Shown: positions 2,621 to 35,392 of the stretch, piece by piece
Position numbering within the stretch: the stretch's first letter is position 1
Layout: the number at the start of each line of letters is the position of its first letter
Source of the DNA: a virus
Lineage: Duplodnaviria > Heunggongvirae > Uroviricota > Caudoviricetes
Strand: one strand, 5' to 3'
Virus record (IMG/VR): IMGVR_UViG_2651869781_000013
Length of the DNA: 36,125 bases
The notes under the pieces: model-generated
What the model was told of the DNA's origin: nothing
Database searches by the model: none
What the model saw: only the letters and a program-made list of their open reading frames with translations
Translations under genes and position numbers: made by a program

Positions 2621-2732
2621 AACTGAAGTTGCCCTGAAAATGAAATTTTTTTGCACAACCGCAGAACTTTTCCGCAGGGCATCAGTCTTAATTAGTGCCA
2701 CTGCTTTTCTTTGATGTCCCCATTTTGTGGAG

Positions 2733-2779
2733 CCCATCAACCCCGCCATTTCGGTTCAAGGTTGATGGGTTTTTTGTTG
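2733..2779 (+). terminator. rho-independent terminator downstream of ybjL
   Basis: Inverted repeat cccatcaacc / ggttgatggg (2733-2742 and 2760-2769) followed by a T-run tttttt (2770-2775). Confidence 0.5.
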
Positions 2780-24877: not shown

Positions 24878-24911
24878 GTTTAAACTGGCTGTCGGAACAG
24901 CCAGTTTAAAC
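24878..24911. terminator. palindrome, probable bidirectional terminator between Q and the cargo operon
   Basis: Perfect 14-bp arms GTTTAAACTGGCTG / CAGCCAGTTTAAAC around a 6-nt loop; overlaps the stop codon of ORF 24906..25754. Confidence 0.5.
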
Positions 24912-25754
24912 ACCGGCACCAATGAAATCGCCATATGAATCTTCTTCAAGGCTGATGTATTCTACCCTCCATTGATCCATCCGCCTCAATGCATACAGGG
25001 AGAAATGAGTATCAGCAACAGCTATGCACGTATTCAATTCTATAAGTTCTGAATGCCCCAAGGTTGGATCACCATAAAACTTATAAAACAAAGCCTTTAG
25101 ATCAGAACATGTTTGTTCAGCCGCTCTTCTGGCATCGGGGCCACCTTCAGTTGCATCATAAACAACATTGATAGAAAGCTCATATGGTATGCCTTCCTCA
25201 AGATCGTTAAATCTTTCTTCGCCCAAATCGAAAAAAACTCCGATCAAATGCTCTGCGTTTGTGGCGATAATATCCGCAACTTCTTTTTCGAAAATAAACT
25301 TTTTATCCTCGTCGTAAGCCCGCAAGCGCTCTTCAAACGAGTTAGGAAACGCTGGACGACCATACTTAGCAGCTAACCATTGCTTAAGAGCTTGTTTCTC
25401 TTCTGTGCTAATGGAGAATGCTGGATCGTTTTCCTCACAACAGAAAGCTTCTTTAGGAAAGATGACTTTCCTTTCATGCCGGAGCTCTACTGCATTCTTC
25501 TTCGCACTTTCTGGGTTTTCAAAACATAGATCGAGTATTCTCGGATGCTTAGCTCTTTTCATCCTGCTTGACCCCTTTTTCAAGGGGCCAAACATCAGTT
25601 CCACGTTTTTTTCTGAATTACTCTGTAAATCACAATCATGCGTTATAACTACAACTTTATGGTTCGTTTCATCAGGCTGCAGAATTCCAAGTGAAACGGC
25701 ATCATCATGTTTAAGTACATGCCCCTGACGCCATGATGTTCCTCGTACCAACAT
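24906..25754 (-). CDS. cargo operon gene 3, hypothetical protein
   Basis: 282 aa, ATG 9 nt after the gene 2 stop; AT-rich; no Walker A, HEXXH or other motif recognised. Confidence 0.55.
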   Translation of the reverse strand: MLVRGTSWRQGHVLKHDDAVSLGILQPDETNHKVVVITHDCDLQSNSEKNVELMFGPLKKGSSRMKRAKHPRILDLCFENPESAKKNAVELRHERKVIFPKEAFCCEENDPAFSISTEEKQALKQWLAAKYGRPAFPNSFEERLRAYDEDKKFIFEKEVADIIATNAEHLIGVFFDLGEERFNDLEEGIPYELSINVVYDATEGGPDARRAAEQTCSDLKALFYKFYGDPTLGHSELIELNTCIAVADTHFSLYALRRMDQWRVEYISLEEDSYGDFIGAGV

Positions 25755-25763
25755 AAATGTGAT

Positions 25764-26426
25764 TTATTCCTCTACCGTTCCAGGAATTGAAATAGATGAC
25801 TTCCAATCATCTGTCGGTTTCGCCTTGCTTGCTAAGTAATTGGCCGATTCAGCAGCAGCATTCATCGCTTTAGCTTCATCAATCAATACCTGAACTGCCC
25901 TATTCCAATCCTCACCTTCTTTTACTACGTCCATTAATGACTTACCATTAAATGCTTTCATTTTCACCAATAGCTTCGCATCATGGAGTCCAGCTTTGGA
26001 AAAAGAGTCAGCGACATTACTAAGGTTGATAATGAATTGCACTTTTGAAGCATCATCAGGCTGGTTCTCCCCTGACAACCATTTATAGAGAGCCTGCCGA
26101 GTTATCCCCAAATCCTTTGCCAGTTCTGACATTGATGGAGACAGCACTTCTCGAATATTAGCTAAATGTTGGGCAACATTCCTGACATCAACCTCAGGAG
26201 AAATTGCAGGCGTGTACGTTGATTCTATGGAATCAAATGCAAACTGAACCCTTGGCTGAACATACTGACGCCATTGCTTATAAGCATTTACAGGGTATGA
26301 AGCCCCCGTACCAACTAATAGTAAAGATGCGGCGACAGCAACAACACCTGATACACATGAGCTTGACTGCAAATTTGGAGAATATCGATCTACAGAGCCT
26401 ATGCTTCCGGTGGGAATTGCATACAT
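25764..26426 (-). CDS. cargo operon gene 2, HTH (XRE-type) protein with N-terminal hydrophobic segment
   Basis: 220 aa from ATG 26426 with RBS GGAGGT, 20 nt after the gene 1 stop; HTH SMSELAKDLGITRQALYKWLSGE; hydrophobic stretch VSGVVAVAASLLLVGTGA. Confidence 0.6.
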   Translation of the reverse strand: MYAIPTGSIGSVDRYSPNLQSSSCVSGVVAVAASLLLVGTGASYPVNAYKQWRQYVQPRVQFAFDSIESTYTPAISPEVDVRNVAQHLANIREVLSPSMSELAKDLGITRQALYKWLSGENQPDDASKVQFIINLSNVADSFSKAGLHDAKLLVKMKAFNGKSLMDVVKEGEDWNRAVQVLIDEAKAMNAAAESANYLASKAKPTDDWKSSISIPGTVEE

Positions 26427-26445
26427 TTTAGTCACCTCCGTTGTT

Positions 26446-27255
26446 TCAGTGCCATTTAGTACGGGCAAAATCTGAAACCATGCCTTCAAATGCTTCTTTA
26501 ACTTTACTATGCAACGAAAGAATCTGTTTTTCAATTAACTGCAAATCAGTTGACATGTTGCCTTCAACATAATGATCTGTATCAATTATTGCGTGCATAC
26601 GATGCTCTGTGTTACTAAATCTCGGCAACGGCAGTAAACCATTAGGAATCATATCTGGCGGAAAACCTAGCTGACCATTCATCTTATGTATTCGTGAAAC
26701 CATAAATCCATTAGGGATCAATGGCTCAACACGTGTCTGATATACGGACTCTTGTATAGACTGTATTGGCGTCCATCCGAAATCAACACCATGAAGTTCC
26801 TTTACAAGATACTGCTCAATTGTTTCGCTTTTCTCAGGAAACACAGCATCCAAATATCGAAGCCCAATCCGACTTAACAGCGATGGCTTAGCAAATTCTA
26901 GAACTTTGCTCAGACCAAGTATCAATGACGAGATGAAAGATACATGGTTATCATAATATGTTGTATGGAACGTAATGAAATCGTTGCCTAAAACAAAACC
27001 AGATCTTCTATCTGCATCAATCATCAACCAACTTGTCACAGGCTCAAATGAATGTACCGGTGGCTCATTGGGGTTTTTTATTTCAAATTTCAACTGAGTT
27101 GTATTGGAAACCTCAAATAAAGGAAATCCCTCAACTCTTAGCGCATCTTGTATGTCTGGAACATACTTACTCATTGCAGCTATTGGAGTAAACTTTACCT
27201 GTACCAATGCATAGTAAACGGGCGCATTGGACATACGTTCGCTGTTAGTACTCAT
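26446..27255 (-). CDS. cargo operon gene 1, hypothetical protein (possibly TIGR04255-like, unverified)
   Basis: 269 aa, ATG with strong RBS AGGAGG; AT-rich; N-terminus MSNAPVYYALVQVKF resembles a recalled family signature; no catalytic motif recognised. Confidence 0.6.
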   Translation of the reverse strand: MSTNSERMSNAPVYYALVQVKFTPIAAMSKYVPDIQDALRVEGFPLFEVSNTTQLKFEIKNPNEPPVHSFEPVTSWLMIDADRRSGFVLGNDFITFHTTYYDNHVSFISSLILGLSKVLEFAKPSLLSRIGLRYLDAVFPEKSETIEQYLVKELHGVDFGWTPIQSIQESVYQTRVEPLIPNGFMVSRIHKMNGQLGFPPDMIPNGLLPLPRFSNTEHRMHAIIDTDHYVEGNMSTDLQLIEKQILSLHSKVKEAFEGMVSDFARTKWH

Positions 27256-27395
27256 GCCGCCCTCCTTGAAATTGTTTCATCTCATATCTCTTTATCTTAC
27301 TAACTGTAGTTTACACATAGGTTGACACTTTCTCCATCATTAAGTTCACTATGACATCAATAGCCAAAACTCTTACGTAATCGCTTCGGCGCGCG

Positions 27396-27414
27396 CTCGT
27401 ATCCCCGCCACGCC
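27396..27414. other. probable cos site (cohesive end)
   Basis: Minus strand reads GGCGTGGCGGGGATACGAG; first 13 nt match my recollection of the 186/P2 19-nt cohesive ends; GC-rich block in a 360-bp non-coding interval. Confidence 0.45.
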
Positions 27415-27617
27415 TGCCCGCTTTATGTAGTGGTTTTCATGCACCTGCATGATCTACGCAAAAGCCCGCCAGTTCTGGCAGGCCTTAGCAAAAACGATCC
27501 TCAAACGATCATGCGATCTCATGCGGCATAGACATGCACCACAGAGCTAACGCCTCGCACAGCTCGTTGTTCAACCTTGCTGACGCCAGAAGCAAGTTCA
27601 GACGCCAGCAACGTTTC

Positions 27618-27851
27618 TTAATGCAGCCAGCTGTCGTCTTCCCACACCTTCTGCATAATTTTCATCACTTGTTTTCTTTCTTCGTCCAGTTGAAGTCCGG
27701 TCAGTTCCACACCGTTAGAGCTACCTTTGCGGATACGAATTACCGTTTTGGGATACAGGGGGCGCAGATTGCGGTAAAGCTCGGATTCAAGGGCGTCCAG
27801 TGTAGACTGGCTAACCTTCTGCTCTTTATCGATCATTATTTCAATGCGCAT
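27618..27851 (-). CDS. DinI-family protein (Tum C-terminal-like)
   Basis: 77 aa from ATG 27851 (MRIEIMIDKEQKVSQSTLDALESEL...WEDDSWL) with RBS GAGGTG; resembles recalled DinI. Confidence 0.7.
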   Translation of the reverse strand: MRIEIMIDKEQKVSQSTLDALESELYRNLRPLYPKTVIRIRKGSSNGVELTGLQLDEERKQVMKIMQKVWEDDSWLH

Positions 27852-27861
27852 AAAAGTCACC

Positions 27862-28050
27862 TCAGCTGATGACATCCATTGAGCGGTTGTATTCGTGGGT
27901 TCTGATTTTTGCCATGAGTTCATCTGTCAGTTCAGAAACCCACTGCAGGGCCAGCCCCTTCTCTTCATCACTACACTCACTAGCCGCTACAAGCTTAAGA
28001 AAAAAATCAATGCGCTGGAGCTTCAAAGACTCCAAAAAATAGTCCTGCAT
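27862..28050 (-). CDS. small protein, possible Tum-like antirepressor N-terminal module
   Basis: 62 aa, strong RBS AGGAGG; first gene after a LexA-boxed promoter; assignment by position only. Confidence 0.45.
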   Translation of the reverse strand: MQDYFLESLKLQRIDFFLKLVAASECSDEEKGLALQWVSELTDELMAKIRTHEYNRSMDVIS

Positions 28051-28092
28051 CTTTCCTCCTATGACACCAAAGCAATACTGTATACATAACCA

Positions 28093-28108
28093 CTGTTTAT
28101 ATTTACAG
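28093..28108. promoter_or_regulatory. LexA box (SOS box) overlapping a sigma70-like promoter
   Basis: CTGTTTATATTTACAG (CTGT-N8-ACAG); on the minus strand flanked by TTTACA (-35-like) and TATACT (-10-like); half-site TACTGTATAC at about 28078-28087. Confidence 0.65.
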
Positions 28109-28202
28109 TATATAATAATCTTACTGATGTAAAACGTTTTTTTATGCTCATCAGCCTGATATGCCTGGTATTATTAAGAGCACGAATTGTTAACCCGCGT
28201 AA

Positions 28203-30617
28203 TTAATACAGGTTTCGCCACTTATCATCTTCCTGCAAACGCTGGTTCCGATAGAAGATACGCAGGCCTGCTCCTGACGGAATACTGCCGCCGCGAAGCA
28301 GTAAATCGACCTCTTTCTCGCTGCCATCAAATCCCCTGGACTTCAGTTCATACACGAGCTGCTGTCGCTGATGATCTGTAATTCGCTGTTTGTAGTCTTT
28401 ACGCCGTTTCGGTTTTACAAGGCGTAACCTTGCTGCCAGTTCCCGGCGCTCTTTTTTGCTCATACTGTGCAGGTAATCGTGCAACTCCTTGTCATCCATG
28501 CGGGTGATATCCGTTCTGGTATCTCCATCAGCTGATTTGTCTTTCCCTTGTTGGTACAAATTTTCAGCAAGGGGACAGTTATTGCCACGAGTCCAAGGGG
28601 CGCAAGCGCCCTGGTCGGCTGCCGCCTCCTGAACGTCAACGGCTTTACGAACCATTTTCCACTTCACTGCATGAGTGCAGATCTTGCCCTCTGCAATGGG
28701 TGACCAGATGCCATAAATACGAATGCCGTGATCGCCATAGGCGGTCGGCTCTTCGTTGATTTCATAAGCGGTTCTGATGAGGTGATATTTACGGGGAACC
28801 AGTACGCCGCCCTGCTTCATGATGTAGGTGGCAAAACAACCAGCATCAGCAGCAGCCAGAATGGCATCAAGACGCGGGTTATCCAGTACCGGCGCACCTG
28901 CTTTTTTGTCACCCTGTTGCCTTGCCGCCTGACCAGCCAGCAAGCGAAGTTCACGGTAAGCCTGACGCCCCGGAATACCAAAGAAGCGGAATTGCTGAAC
29001 ACGATGCAGAGACGCCCAGGCATTCACGTATTCAGCGTTATCACGCAGAGATTTACCCGTTTCCTTGCTGATCTCGCCAGCCAGACCACGACCGTCAATG
29101 TTCTTACTGATATATTTCGCGATGTAGCTTGTCGGCGTTCCTTTGCGCGGGTTAATCAACTCAGACTTAAAGCGCGGCCCAGTGTTATTGCCCAGCTCCT
29201 CGCGGTCTTCACGAATGGCAAACTTACGCAGTAATGCAGTGATGGCACGGCGGTCTTTTTTGCGCATGAAACACAACAGGTGCCAGTGAACTGTGCCATC
29301 ATGATGCGGCTCAGCCACCCGCACGCCATACCAGCGCAACCCGGCTTTGTGCATCGCCTTACGAAATGCAGCAAACATGCCGACCAGATAATCGCTGCTT
29401 TGTCTTACCGTCGCGTTTGTCCAGGTCGGGTTTGGTCTGCCGTTATTTAGCGTGGAATGGAAACGCGACGGACAGGTGATAGTGTAGAAAACGGCGCAGT
29501 CACCGCGCATTTCCGCGATAAGCTCCAGACCTTTAACACAGGCCATCATCTCATTGCGGCGATGCGCAGGGTTGCTGCTGCTGGCGTTTACCACATCCTC
29601 CATGTCCAGCGTGTCGCCGTCTTCGTTCACCAGTTCATGAGAACGGAAAAACTCCAGCGACTTACGGCGCTGCTCACGTTTATGCAACACGGCTTCATAG
29701 CTGACATAGGGAGATGCTTTTTTGCTGACAAGGCAGACAGCACGCAACTGCTCTTCCCGCCATTCGCAACGCATCTTCCATAATTTCCGATACCACCAGT
29801 CGGCGCACAACATACGCGCCAGCGAACCCGGAATGAGTTCATAGGGCACGGGTTTACGGCGGTTTCTTTTCCGACGGAGTTGCTCAAACGCAGGCGGGAT
29901 TACATCCAGACGCAGGGTTTTCGCTGCCACCCTTTCCCATGTATTGCGGATTTCTTCTGGCTTAACGTCATCGGTGGCATACAAATCGCCACAAGCGGCA
30001 TCAAGGCACATACTCATATGCGCAGCTACCAGGGTGGACAGGCGTTTCACCTGATCCTGACTCATTTCAGGCAGGAACAGCAGGCCGTCCAGCCCTTCAT
30101 GGCTTGCCATAAAGCGAAAAGATGCAGATAGCTGACTGTCGCGTACATGCTCCAGTCGTTCCAGACATGGCTTAATCGTCTCACGTAAATAGCGGGAATA
30201 AGCCTTTGGCCTGCCAAGGCTGCTGAAGTATTCAATACGTTGCATCAGCGGCTTGCTGATATGGGAAGGCTGGGCGTTGACGTCCGCCAGAATGACCATA
30301 TCCGGATTAAAACGCTGCTGCTCATGCACCAGCTTTGCCCGACTAATGAGCTTATCCTGTTCCATTTCGCGCTGGACAGGATCACGGGATTCATTAAAGA
30401 AATAACGCTCCCAGACCTGATCACTCAGCGCCTCACGGCGCAGCTGTTCCTGCTCGTTATCGGCAGCGTACAGAGTGATCAGGTTTGAAAGCGTAGAAAC
30501 CGGCGCAACTTCCACCGGGTCCAGATAAGGGTTAATGGCCTTTTTCGGGCTGTTCCATGAGAACGATGCGGCAGCTTCGTTAAAGCCGCAGCAGTTGTTC
30601 ATATCGGCATGACTCAT
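28203..30617 (-). CDS. A: replication initiation protein gpA (rolling-circle nickase family)
   Basis: 804 aa; contains [12 protein letters not shown]-type motif; positioned as in P2/186. Confidence 0.85.
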
Positions 30618-31471
30618 GCACGTACTCCGTACACGGCAGAACTATCCACGCCACGCGAATAATCAAATCCCACCCAGCAGCGCGGCCCGGAAACAGCAAT
30701 GATTTCTGTTGCTGATTTACCCTCGCCAGCTGCCACACCGATGCTGCGTTTTGCCTTGATGTAGTGGTGAGTAAAATTGCGATACAGCGAACGGATCAGG
30801 GATGTGTCACTGTTAGAAACAATGACCGGATGTCCTTCTGATGACCGATGTTCAAGAACAGATGCCAGGTGATACTGGTCATCTTCAGTGAAGCCGTCAG
30901 TGTGATAGCCGGAAAACGTACCGTCATACGGCGGATCGCAATACACCACATCCCCCGCCTTCAACATCGCCAGCGTTTCATCAAAGCTGGCGCAGATAAA
31001 CGTTGCTCGCTGGGCCTTTTCTGCAAATGCGCGAATTTCTTTTTCAGGGAAATACGGATTTTTATAATTACCGTAGGGAATGTTGAAATGCCCGCTCTTG
31101 TTATAGCGACATAAACCACGGTAACCGTGACGATTGAGATACAGGAAATATACCGCTTTCATGAAATCAGTAATTTCAGTGGAGTAATTAAACTCCTGCC
31201 TTATGTTGTAATAAGCCACCTCCCTGTTTGCGATCTCAAATAAAACTCTGGCGCGAGATATAAACGATTCACAATCAGCGGCAACCTTTTTATAGAGGTT
31301 GATTAAATCAGGATTAATATCCGCAACCAGATAGCTGGGGTAATCCGTCTCCATCATCACAGCACAGGAACCCGCGAAAGGTTCAACCAGTCGCGGGCCA
31401 GCAGGAAGGTGTTTTTTCAGTTCGGACATAATGGCGGTTTTATTTCCCGCCCATTTCAGGATGGTGCTCAT
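30614..31471 (-). CDS. DNA N6-adenine methyltransferase (Dam-like)
   Basis: 285 aa from ATG 31471; motifs LKWAGNK (SAM binding) and DPPY; stop overlaps the A start. Confidence 0.8.
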
Positions 31472-31695
31472 ACAGCACCTCCGTTGTAATGTTTGCCTTT
31501 CAGCTCTGCGATTTCCTGGCAGGTAATGCAAAGCTGCACTCCCGGAATGGCGCGGCGTCGTGCTGGCGGAATTGGCGCTTCACATTCAATACAAAGCACG
31601 CGAGACACGCCCGGTGTTTTGGCACGGGCAGCACGAATATGGCGCTGGCGTTCTTCTTCAACGCGCTGCTGTACGAGATCCATTGCATCAGCCAT
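31468..31695 (-). CDS. TraR/DksA-family C4 zinc-finger protein
   Basis: 75 aa with CIECEAPIPPARRRAIPGVQLCITCQ (CxxC-N17-CxxC). Confidence 0.7.
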   Translation of the reverse strand: MADAMDLVQQRVEEERQRHIRAARAKTPGVSRVLCIECEAPIPPARRRAIPGVQLCITCQEIAELKGKHYNGGAV

Positions 31696-32508: not shown

Positions 32509-33018
32509 TCACAGCAAACCGAATGAAGCACCGAGGCCAGTCACGGTATCAACTGCACTCGCCATCGCAGGATTAGCCTGTAAACGGGCCTGCAATGAAA
32601 CAGCAGCCAGCGCCATCAGTCGTGTTACAGAGTTAATGCTGCTGATAGCATCACGACGACCGGCACTAGTTTTTACATCACCAGATACCGCACCTGCTGC
32701 AACACGTCCGATCTCTGCAGTTGCGCTCATGACGTAATGCGGCAGTTTCTCTTTTGCAACCTCATTAATCGGTACACATGGCAGGCAGTGAATCTGTGCC
32801 AGAAAACCATCTACCAGCGTTGAATCTTCAGTCAGATCGGTAAGCAGCCAGATTTCTGGTGCGGTTAATAAATGAGGCTGAGCTGGGTTCAGCTTGTTCC
32901 GCAGAATCTGCACATTCATGCCTGCACGTTCTGCCAGTTGCACCAGATTGTGGCGCAGTGCAAATGCACGACAGGCTTCATCAAAATGTGGATGTTTGGA
33001 AACTTGGTAATCAAACAT
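32509..33018 (-). CDS. cII: CII-like lysogeny-establishment activator (phage 186 type)
   Basis: 169 aa from ATG 33018: [24 protein letters not shown]...QILRNKLNP; closely resembles recalled 186 CII. Confidence 0.85.
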
Positions 33019-33050
33019 GGTCAATGCCTCTGATGTATTTCAGAATCGAA

Positions 33051-33272: not shown

Positions 33273-33397
33273 GATGCAACATTCCTCGTTTAATGATGAT
33301 TAATCAGGACGAATACGGATCGTTTGTATTTTGTGAACACCATAAACATACGATCGCACTGTGAAATCGTCAAGATAAAAGTTCACTTGGAGTGACC
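33273..33397. promoter_or_regulatory. lysis-lysogeny switch region (divergently arranged apl and cI)
   Basis: 125-bp AT-rich interval between the apl and cI starts with repeated TGTGAA/GTTCAC elements; exact operators and promoters not resolved. Confidence 0.4.
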
Positions 33398-33967
33398 ATG
33401 AATTTGGAGAAAGGCGGACGAGGCGCTATAGAGCGCATGGTAGAAGCTTATGGATTCAAAACTCGACAGGCGTTGTGCGATCATTTAGGAATCTCTAAAA
33501 GTACACTCGCTACACGCTACATGCGTGACTCATTCCCAGCAGAATGGGTAATCCAGTGCGCCCTTGAAACGGGCACCTCGCTTAATTGGCTCACAACTGG
33601 ACATGGTTCAAAGCAAACTTCAGGTAATACAAATACGATGGAAGTTGCTAAATATGTATTATCTGATGGTGCCTTGCGTGAAGACGGTTTTTATATTTTT
33701 GATAAGGGATTTCTACCCTCTACGTTTAAAAAACCTTTTGTCATCACAGATAACAATTCTGAATTTATTTGTGATAAAGAATTTGATGATATACGTGATG
33801 GTAAATGGGTAATAAGTATTGATGGCGAAATAACAATCCGCGACATTACTCGTTTACCCGGTGGAAGAATCTTCGTTGAAGGTGGAAACAGATCCTTCGA
33901 GTGCAAGATAGAAGATGTTGAAATAATTGGAAAAATTATAAGTTTAACAATTAAGTACGTTAGGTAA
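33398..33967 (+). CDS. cI: CI-like immunity repressor
   Basis: 189 aa from ATG 33398; N-terminal HTH (LGISKSTLATRYMRD); position as in 186. Confidence 0.65.
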   Translation: MNLEKGGRGAIERMVEAYGFKTRQALCDHLGISKSTLATRYMRDSFPAEWVIQCALETGTSLNWLTTGHGSKQTSGNTNTMEVAKYVLSDGALREDGFYIFDKGFLPSTFKKPFVITDNNSEFICDKEFDDIRDGKWVISIDGEITIRDITRLPGGRIFVEGGNRSFECKIEDVEIIGKIISLTIKYVR

Positions 33968-33982
33968 TACCGGGAGGAAACT

Positions 33983-34174
33983 ATGCTTGGTAAGGTATTT
34001 TTTGTGGTTTTATCATGCTCTTTGTTATTAAACCCACTAACTACCTATGCTAAAAATTATCCTTGTTCTGGGAAAAAGGGAGGTGTCTCTCACTGTACCT
34101 CCGATGGAAAGTTCGTTTGCAATGATGGAACTATTAGTAAATCAAAAAAAATCTGTACTAAAAACTCGCGATAA
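33983..34174 (+). CDS. small secreted cysteine-containing protein (moron)
   Basis: 63 aa, RBS GGAGG; signal peptide [23 protein letters not shown]; basic mature part with 4 Cys; AT-rich. Confidence 0.5.
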
Positions 34175-34360
34175 TTTTTGCTTTTATATCTGCGCCTAAT
34201 ATAACAATGAGCCGCAGGCTAACCGCAAAAGTCACATACTCACATAGCAAAAAATAGCCAACTTCATTATGGCTTCAGTGAGATGTATGGTCGCAAGATT
34301 TCATACATTGACACTGGTTATACATACAGTAAAAATGCTCTCTATTGGAGGGCATTTTTT

Positions 34361-35392
34361 ATGGCAGTACGAAAACTCACCACAGGAAAATGGCTTTGCG
34401 AATGTTACCCCGCCGGACGTAGTGGGCGTCGTGTGCGTAAACAATTCGCCACCAAAGGCGAAGCACTGGCTTTTGAGCGTCACACGATGGAAGAAACCGA
34501 AGCAAAGCCCTGGCTGGGCGAATCAGTAGATCGTCGAACCCTGAAAGACGTGGTTGAGCTATGGTTCAAACTACATGGTAAATCTCTGACTGCTGGGCAG
34601 CATGTCTATGACAAATTGCTGCTGATGGTTGACGCTCTGGGCAATCCCCTTGCAACCGATCTCACATCTAAAATGTTTGCCCATTATCGAGATAAACGAC
34701 TGACAGGTGAGATCTACTTCAGCGAGAAATGGAAGAAAGGGGCCAGCCCGGTCACCATTAACCTGGAGCAAAGCTATCTAAGTAGTGTTTTTAGCGAACT
34801 ATCCCGCCTGGGCGAATGGTCGTATCCAAACCCACTGGAGAACATGCGAAAATTCACCATCGCAGAAAAAGAGATGGCATGGCTTACCCATGAGCAGATT
34901 GTTGAACTGCTGGATGATTGCAAACGTCAGGACCCAATTCTGGCACTGGTAGTCAAGATATGCTTAAGCACAGGCGCACGCTGGCGAGAAGCAATAAACC
35001 TTACCCGATCACAGGTGACCAAATACCGAATTACCTTTGTAAGAACGAAGGGGAAGAAAAACAGAAGCATCCCTATCAGTAAAGAGCTTTATGAAGAGAT
35101 CATGGCGCTTGATGGGTTCAATTTCTTCACAGACTGCTATTTTCAATTTTTATCCGTGATGGAAAAAACGTCTATCGTGCTCCCTCGCGGTCAACTTACA
35201 CACGTTCTGCGTCATACGTTTGCGGCGCATTTCATGATGTCGGGTGGAAACATCCTTGCTTTGCAAAAAATCCTCGGACATCACGACATAAAAATGACTA
35301 TGCGTTATGCTCATCTATCACCTGATCACTTAGAGACAGCTCTTCGTTTCAATCCACTAGCAACTTTGGATGTTACTAAATCAGATTCTTAA
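34361..35392 (+). CDS. int: tyrosine integrase (P2/186 family)
   Basis: 343 aa from ATG 34361; C-terminal motifs R...HxLRHT...Y (LTHVLRHTFA ... MTMRYAHL); adjacent to attL. Confidence 0.85.
   Translation: MAVRKLTTGKWLCECYPAGRSGRRVRKQFATKGEALAFERHTMEETEAKPWLGESVDRRTLKDVVELWFKLHGKSLTAGQHVYDKLLLMVDALGNPLATDLTSKMFAHYRDKRLTGEIYFSEKWKKGASPVTINLEQSYLSSVFSELSRLGEWSYPNPLENMRKFTIAEKEMAWLTHEQIVELLDDCKRQDPILALVVKICLSTGARWREAINLTRSQVTKYRITFVRTKGKKNRSIPISKELYEEIMALDGFNFFTDCYFQFLSVMEKTSIVLPRGQLTHVLRHTFAAHFMMSGGNILALQKILGHHDIKMTMRYAHLSPDHLETALRFNPLATLDVTKSDS

Follow-up and report, generated by a model that had tools for sequence, protein, structure and literature searches.

A split tumA/tumB locus is very probably the SOS-induction operon of a Fels-2/DuoHS-type P2-family prophage of Escherichia coli

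Introduction

In phage 186, the Tum protein inhibits or sequesters the CI repressor, and the promoter p95 is repressed by LexA (186 record annotation; PMC3121763). Here, we analyzed a tum-type locus in the IMG/VR virus record IMGVR_UViG_2651869781_000013, a stretch of 36,125 nucleotides given as one strand, 5′ to 3′ (hereafter the window, by which this whole stretch is meant). In this locus, a promoter with a LexA box precedes two small open reading frames (ORFs) on the minus strand, a 62-aa ORF and a 77-aa ORF of the DinI family, which are called tumA and tumB below. We consider it very probable that this is the operon through which the SOS response induces a Fels-2/DuoHS-type P2-family prophage, integrated next to ybjL and rybB in Escherichia coli.

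A two-gene form of tum has been described previously. In the record of phage PSP3, tumA is annotated as “similar to 5′ end 186 tum; UV induction of prophage” and is followed by tumB, annotated as “similar to dinI and 3′ end of 186 tum”. With reference to Bunny et al. 2002, Lemire et al. (2011, PMC3121763) stated that tum is split in two in Fels-2 and PSP3, and that the upstream gene of PSP3 is the antirepressor. Furthermore, a 2025 paper on “Phollow” deleted “tum (locus tag ECHS_RS04495)” in E. coli HS, which carries the prophage DuoHS (PMC12055606). With either this tum deletion or a lexA(Ind−) allele, mitomycin C no longer caused lysis or the formation of virions in HS (PMC12055606).

Results

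The tum promoter and SOS box 1

Read along the minus strand, the locus consists of gene A, a 152-nt intergenic region, the 62-aa ORF, a 10-nt spacer, and the 77-aa ORF. The following features were located in the promoter region and in the gene behind it.

28128–28133, minus strand: −35 hexamer TTTACA of the tum promoter, the counterpart of the annotated 186 p95 −35
28105–28110, minus strand: −10 hexamer TACTGT, doubling as the left half-site of SOS box 1; identical to the p95 −10 given in the 186 record
28091–28110, minus strand: SOS box 1, the 20-mer TACTGTAAATATAAACAGTG, with the core CTGT-N8-ACAG at 28093–28108
28055–28060, minus strand: ribosome-binding site (RBS) AGGAGG of tumA, as read from the sequence; kept in Fels-2-type relatives
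27862–28050, minus strand: tumA-like gene of 62 aa, ATG at 28050 and stop at 27862; its product is a presumed CI antirepressor

A preliminary description of this locus had reported a perfect CTGT-N8-ACAG box at 28093–28108, and this box is indeed present as the only occurrence of the pattern in the window. The 20-mer TACTGTAAATATAAACAGTG agreed with the LexA consensus TACTGTATATATATACAGTA at 17 of 20 positions, and such a match appeared in none of 100 shuffles. A rough position weight matrix (PWM), made from 15 E. coli LexA sites, was then employed, and box 1 scored 23.8 bits, which is within the range of the recA and uvrB sites. The box had also been described as overlapping −35- and −10-like hexamers about 45 bp upstream of the 62-aa ORF. 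The overlap holds for the −10 (28110–28105) but not for the −35 (28133–28128), which is located 17 nt upstream of the −10; likewise, the box does lie upstream of the ORF, but its end is separated from the ATG by 42 nt. As TACTGT lies inside the box, LexA bound to box 1 would have to occlude the −10. At the level of sequence, the LexA box overlaps the −10 just as it does in 186 p95.

To show which bases are conserved, 12 promoters were aligned, namely those of the window, Fels-2, DuoHS, SopEPhi, SEN8, two Klebsiella phages, a Yersinia phage, two ESSI-2-type phages, 186, and PSP3. No variation was seen in the TT.CA core of the −35, in the complete TACTGT hexamer, or in CAGT of the right half-site. 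Mean column identity of the alignment was 53%, and the flanks of the box diverged while its half-sites stayed invariant. The spacing between the −35 and TACTGT, which is 17 nt in the window, was 17–18 nt throughout the 12 promoters.

The 62-aa gene and its relation to 186 Tum

The 62-aa ORF carries the strong RBS noted in the preliminary description, with AGGAGG (28060–28055) sitting 4 nt 5′ of the ATG. Its product fell into phrog_698 (“unknown function”) with an expectation value (E) of 3.6e-38, and showed weaker matches to phrog_8554 (2.4e-8) and phrog_1993 (2.2e-3). The N-terminal 70 residues of 186 Tum matched phrog_1993 (2e-23), phrog_8554 (3e-12), and phrog_698 (6.7e-6), and the last of these matches was in register, with Tum residues 7–44 on profile positions 7–44. 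PSP3 TumA belongs to phrog_1993. Profiles built from 29 diverse relatives of the window ORF and from 15 relatives of the 186 Tum N-terminus were then compared by hhalign, which aligned residues 1–44 against 1–44 with a probability of 96.6% and an E of 6.7e-10. Identity between TumA and the Tum N-terminus was only ~17%. We conclude that the homology, as judged from these profiles, is remote but solid.

TumA is 98.4% identical to Fels-2 STM2728. The primary description of Fels-2 tum is reportedly that of Bunny et al. 2002. Similarly, TumA agrees with E. coli HS ECHS_RS04495 at 61 of 62 residues, and primer NHR28 (ATAGGAGGAAAGATG/TGAGGTGACTTTTATGCGCATTG) corresponds to window sequence flanking the 62-aa ORF on either side. 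This match indicates that the HS deletion is in-frame and joins the start and stop codons, thereby leaving the dinI-like gene and its RBS intact.

A search by phmmer of 1.8 billion representatives retrieved 66 small stand-alone TumA relatives and no fused protein of Tum length. In ESSI2_ev015 and Cronobacter phage ESSI-2, a TumA-like gene (41–49% identical) stands behind a single LexA box without any DinI-like gene, and the portal module comes next, indicating that the DinI half is dispensable for the module.

AlphaFold modelled TumA as a confident two-helix hairpin (helices 2–22 and 28–61) with a predicted local distance difference test (pLDDT) score of 88.9. A Foldseek search with this model against the PDB returned only generic helical hairpins (E >0.5), and TumA had no match in the Pfam, NCBIfam, and PADLOC families or in a PDB sequence search.

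The RefSeq name of the 62-aa protein is “hypothetical protein”. Close TumA homologues are labelled “Levan regulatory protein” or “levan regulatory domain protein” in some sources, a label to which the evidence gives no support. The practical value of the assignment thus lies in annotation, as the gene can safely be named a TumA-type antirepressor.

The DinI-family gene and the end of the operon

The second gene and the structures that follow it are listed below.

27618–27851, minus strand: tumB-like gene of 77 aa, DinI-family, ATG at 27851 and stop at 27618
27577–27611, minus strand: strong 11-bp hairpin TTGCTGGCGTC...GGCGTCAGCAA, directly 3′ of the tumB stop, with no U-tract; upstream of the terminator-like hairpin
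27457–27486, minus strand: probable intrinsic terminator of the tum operon, with an 11-bp stem and a GAAC loop, followed by UUUUGCG

As the preliminary description had it, a DinI-family gene starts 10 nt after the 62-aa ORF (spacer 27861–27852), and the two ORFs are in different frames. The tumB RBS, GAGG at 27860–27863, overlaps the tumA stop codon. TumB matched PF06183 with an E of 6.6e-23 and 81.3 bits (gathering cut-off, 24.2), and it also matched the structure of E. coli DinI, 1GHH (E 3.9e-6). On phrog_189, TumB covered positions 71–148 of 151, which correspond to the DinI half of Tum-length proteins. It was 98.7% identical to the Fels-2 DinI-family protein, 76.6% identical to PSP3 TumB, and 40% identical to residues 70–146 of 186 Tum. 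Against the NCBIfam DinI equivalog PRK10597, TumB scored 42 bits, below the cut-off of 111, indicating that it is a phage paralogue and not the chromosomal E. coli DinI.

The RNA fold of 27440–27625 had a z-score of −3.1. The tum operon probably ends at the hairpin and U-tract of 27486–27457, whose place would be analogous to that of the annotated partial terminator t95a of 186. The hairpin at 27577–27611 could stabilise the 3′ end of the mRNA. Another terminator-like hairpin was found at the tumA/tumB junction (27873–27856); it was rejected as incidental because diverged relatives do not conserve it.

In Escherichia phage 500465-1, the dinI-like gene (1414–1440) carries a one-base deletion soon past the start codon (ATGCGCATTGAATAA...). 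Thus, in this phage the dinI-like gene is frameshifted and annotated with a different start, and its tumA is intact.

A second SOS box and the double operator

The preliminary description had named one LexA box at this promoter. Beyond it, we observed that this box is half of a double operator, whose other half is as follows.

28076–28095, minus strand: SOS box 2, the 20-mer CAGTGGTTATGTATACAGTA, with the core GTGG-N8-ACAG at 28078–28093; it overlaps box 1 by one base, the last G of box 1

The double operator spans 28076–28110 (35 nt), in which two 16-bp boxes share one base. Box 2 scored 16.9 bits in the rough PWM, which makes it the third-best site in the window, and the next best reached 11.9 bits. 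It was present in all eight Fels-2-type promoters, but not in those of 186, PSP3, and the ESSI-2 types.

The 35–40-nt double operator also matched small Col-type plasmids at 86–92% identity, for example ACTGTATATAAAACCAGTGGTTATGTGTACAGTAT. These plasmid matches sit just upstream of pesticin (pPCP1 pst) and of a cloacin gene. When the pesticin and cloacin loci were compared with the window, similarity was confined to the operator and none was found outside it, so that convergence is indistinguishable from common origin. Double boxes of colicin genes are bound cooperatively by two LexA dimers, which results in very tight repression (PMC2994835). By analogy, the tum promoter (Ptum) should be held tighter, and should fire later, than the single-box promoters of 186 and PSP3. 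Such tight, late control would be appropriate where the firing of a promoter is lethal to the cell.

The CI repressor and its pairing with TumA

The presumed target of TumA is encoded on the other strand.

33392–33967, plus strand: 186-type CI repressor, matching PF07022 (E 2.8e-33) and PF16452 (E 1.1e-28)

The window CI is 95% identical to that of DuoHS. Across phages, TumA proteins that are at least 98% identical were paired with CI proteins that are only 39–55% identical overall. This apparent paradox, the same TumA with diverged CI, was gone once the CI domains were compared separately. In phages sharing TumA, the N-terminal DNA-binding domains (helix-turn-helix, HTH) of CI were 70–77% identical to that of the window, and the C-terminal domains 27–42%. 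The N-terminal domain of 186 CI is 41% identical to that of the window, and the 186 Tum N-terminus is only remotely related to TumA. This pattern, which is a correlation only, fits a recognition of the CI N-terminal domain by TumA. If TumA does recognise this domain, cross-induction among these prophages is predicted. Given this domain pattern, one may also ask what determines immunity specificity among these phages.

Prophage context and distribution of the module

The window carries a P2-family prophage integrated beside ybjL and the RybB small RNA (sRNA) gene in E. coli. The DuoHS region of E. coli HS is collinear with it at 95–98% nucleotide identity outside the tail-fibre and cargo regions, and both prophages occupy the same chromosomal integration site. 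In addition to P2-type capsid and tail genes, the window encodes the following.

2700–2778, plus strand: RybB sRNA gene (Rfam RF00110, 105 bits), flanked by ybjL and by the prophage's ogr end
28203–30617, minus strand: P2-type replication gene A (PF05840, E 6e-127)
30614–31531: Dam-type methylase
32509–33024: CII

As the RybB gene lies directly at the prophage boundary, the attachment site may overlap or abut rybB. The module was carried by 1125 of 5426 complete E. coli genomes (~21%), including strains B, C, and CFT073, and also occurred in many P2-family phages of Klebsiella, Salmonella, and Yersinia.

A LexA-like site at the int promoter

A further observation that goes beyond the preliminary description concerns a second LexA-like box upstream of int.

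34312–34331, plus strand: second LexA-like site CACTGGTTATACATACAGTA, reading CTGG-N8-ACAG (minus strand, CTGT-N8-CCAG); its strength by PWM equals that of tum box 1
34339–34361, plus strand: hairpin GCTCTC-TATTG-GAGGGC, followed by TTTTTT and the int ATG; the 3′ arm holds the int RBS
34283–35392, plus strand: integrase, with the coordinates of its longest ORF from the mechanical list; translation probably starts at 34362

This site had been missed by the CTGT-N8-ACAG pattern because its minus strand reads CTGT-N8-CCAG. It fills the 17-nt spacer of a promoter-like pair, TTGACA (34309–34314) and AAAAAT (34332–34337), and lies ~30 nt 5′ of the probable int start, ATG 34362 (MAVRKL...). The site is identical in DuoHS. 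Among the Klebsiella phages KP12 and 4LV2017 and E. coli phage 813R9, the 8-nt centre varied between half-sites that remained invariant. The unit made of the promoter and the int 5′ end was found in ~1100 of the 5426 E. coli genomes, behind varied upstream cargo genes. A literature search on LexA-controlled int promoters in P2-like phages found nothing. As judged from these motifs, the int promoter may be SOS-controlled.

In the KP12 group, the hairpin reads GCCCTC...GAGGGC, a change that improves its pairing. Speculatively, this hairpin would terminate, or translationally mask, the read-through from cI and the cargo genes. Transcripts that start at the LexA-boxed int promoter would lack the 5′ arm, and the hairpin could therefore not form in them.

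Cargo genes

Two regions of the prophage hold genes that vary among relatives.

33983–34174, plus strand: 63-aa ORF with a signal-peptide-like N-terminus, between cI and int; also in E. coli HS
26446–27255, minus strand: TIGR04255-family protein (E 1.7e-52)
25764–26534, minus strand: HTH/XRE-like protein with weak RmrA/mad1 matches (E 0.002–0.008), overlapping the TIGR04255 gene
24906–25754, minus strand: 282-aa protein, no family match

In 186 and RE2010, int directly abuts cI, and other relatives carry a “chromosome segregation ATPase” or a “SNIPE-associated domain” gene at this spot. Thus, the cI–int junction behaves as an insertion point for cargo. On the minus strand, the segment 24906–27255, between tumB and the portal gene, holds cargo unlike that of DuoHS and Fels-2. 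It corresponds to a variable accessory slot of P2-family phages, which is occupied by orf97 in 186 and by a TIR-domain protein in phage 500465-1. PADLOC returned no significant match for any of the three cargo proteins of this segment, which deserves attention as a candidate for a defence system.

Discussion

Proposed mechanism of induction

In the lysogen, host LexA bound to the double operator (28076–28110) would cover the −10 and the start region, thereby keeping the promoter shut. After DNA damage, RecA-stimulated cleavage of LexA would open the promoter. The TumA thus produced would bind the 186-type CI, probably at its conserved N-terminal DNA-binding domain, and remove it from its operators, and this removal would switch on the early lytic operon. 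TumB would bind RecA filaments and adjust how strong or how lasting the SOS signal is. It would be the counterpart of the C-terminal half of Tum, and of Tum95.5, the internally initiated 77-aa product of 186, which the 186 record annotates as modulating induction.

A wider scheme would combine both LexA-like sites into a two-promoter LexA regulon, in which a tight, late, all-or-none Ptum is accompanied by an SOS-gated int promoter with a hairpin that stops read-through. Integrase supply would then be independent of cI transcription, and the int promoter would form a portable unit for cargo between cI and int. We hold this scheme only tentatively and regard it as somewhat doubtful. If the double operator and the int box hold, they would refine the tightness and the order of the DNA-damage response in very common prophages.

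Evidence against and alternative explanations

Several points weigh against the assignment as a LexA-controlled tumA/tumB operon that inactivates CI. The loose CTGT-N8-ACAG pattern was not significant by itself, with 0.45 matches expected per window and at least one found in 32 of 100 shuffles. A sigma-70 consensus scan of 27300–28400 called no promoter, and the −10 is weak, as TACTGT agrees with TATAAT at three of six positions; the annotated 186 p95 −10 does likewise. The failed scan was nevertheless rejected as proof of an absent promoter, since p95 is experimentally annotated and has an equally weak −10. LexA control of exactly this promoter is argued from its sequence, and the effect of box 2 is drawn from the colicin operators. 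Pairwise BLASTP of the small ORF with 186 Tum and PSP3 TumA gave no alignment, and neither did PSP3 TumA with 186 Tum; the homology of TumA with the Tum N-terminus comes from profile methods. Direct binding to CI was shown only for 186 Tum, and would extend to the split type by analogy. The role of TumB and the CI N-terminal domain as a target are likewise suggested rather than observed. Furthermore, the PSP3 antirepressor result is a personal communication cited second-hand, and the DuoHS deletion could in principle affect tumB translation.

This last point bears on an explanation in which induction is actually caused by the DinI-like protein, for example through RecA or CI, and the 62-aa ORF is only an accessory or a translational-coupling leader. 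Both parts form one polypeptide in 186, where DinI-only products are annotated as modulating induction, and the overlap of the tumB RBS with the tumA stop means that a tumA deletion could disturb tumB expression. However, the DuoHS deletion fused the start and stop of tumA and kept the tumB RBS, and induction was still lost; ESSI-2-type phages have the TumA-like gene alone behind a LexA box; the upstream gene of PSP3 was reported to carry the antirepressor activity; and the type of the CI N-terminal domain is tracked by the type of TumA, not by DinI. We therefore regard a DinI-type inducer as highly improbable. It is also very unlikely that TumA, although needed for induction, acts on CII, Apl, or a host factor rather than on CI. 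Such a target would accommodate the fact that TumA–CI binding is extrapolated for the split type, and that identical TumA proteins are paired with CI proteins of 39–55% overall identity. Yet TumA is homologous to the part of Tum described as inhibiting CI DNA binding, the N-terminal domains of CI are conserved at 70–77% in TumA-sharing phages, and nothing supports a non-CI target.

The LexA box itself might be a chance or vestigial match, with the genes expressed constitutively or by read-through from the early lytic operon via gene A. The insignificance of the loose pattern and the empty promoter scan would agree with this, nor is a terminator apparent in the stretch from gene A to tumA. Nevertheless, the full 20-mer reached a match level absent from all 100 shuffles, the half-sites and the −35 were the only invariant blocks in the 12 diverged promoters, and the operator is near-identical to bacteriocin operators under experimentally established LexA control. 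In addition, lexA(Ind−) blocks induction of the near-identical DuoHS prophage. A chance or vestigial box thus appears extremely improbable, and LexA control of a tumA/tumB operon directed against CI remains the preferred reading.

Comparison with known systems

The preliminary description had likened the locus to the SOS-induction module of phage 186. This likeness is borne out, as a p95-like promoter, a homologue of the Tum N-terminus, a DinI gene, the gene A context, and a 186-type CI were all found. As in the SOS operon of 186 (p95, LexA site, tum, orf97), the locus is positioned after gene A, and the −10 TACTGT is the left half of the LexA box; the N-terminus of Tum is homologous to TumA, its C-terminus is DinI-like as TumB is, and CI is of the same type. 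In contrast, 186 Tum is one polypeptide of 146 aa, whereas the window has two ORFs in different frames that are 10 nt apart. Moreover, 186 has a single SOS box and the window two overlapping ones, and other cargo replaces orf97 in the window.

The split into two ORFs, which had also been noted, is real. It is, however, not a peculiarity of this prophage; the locus is of the split tumA/tumB variant of PSP3 and Fels-2, not of the fused 186 form. Fels-2 has the same two-gene arrangement (STM2728/STM2726.1), with proteins 98.4% and 98.7% identical to those of the window. PSP3 differs in that its TumA is in phrog_1993, that an in-frame stop and one codon separate tumA from tumB, and that it has a single box.

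Among LexA-repressed operons outside this group, the Gifsy GfoA/GftA operons similarly combine a small antirepressor with a DinI homologue (PMC3121763). They differ in their reversed gene order, their unrelated antirepressors, and their target repressors of another family (PMC3121763). The operators of pesticin, cloacin, and colicin genes share the arrangement CTGT-N8-(A/C)CAG-T-GG-N8-ACAG with its one-base overlap, at 86–92% identity over ~40 nt. In the bacteriocin promoters, however, the operator begins 3–4 nt past the −10, whereas in the prophage box 1 contains the −10.

DuoHS is collinear with the window at 96–98% nucleotide identity and has the same TumA at 61 of 62 residues, a CI of 95% identity, and the same double operator; it differs in the cargo downstream of tumB and in the tail-fibre region. 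Experiments have shown that its induction needs both tum and a cleavable LexA (PMC12055606). The module is therefore already known as the LexA–Tum switch of Fels-2/DuoHS-type prophages, and the window approximates the studied DuoHS with different cargo.

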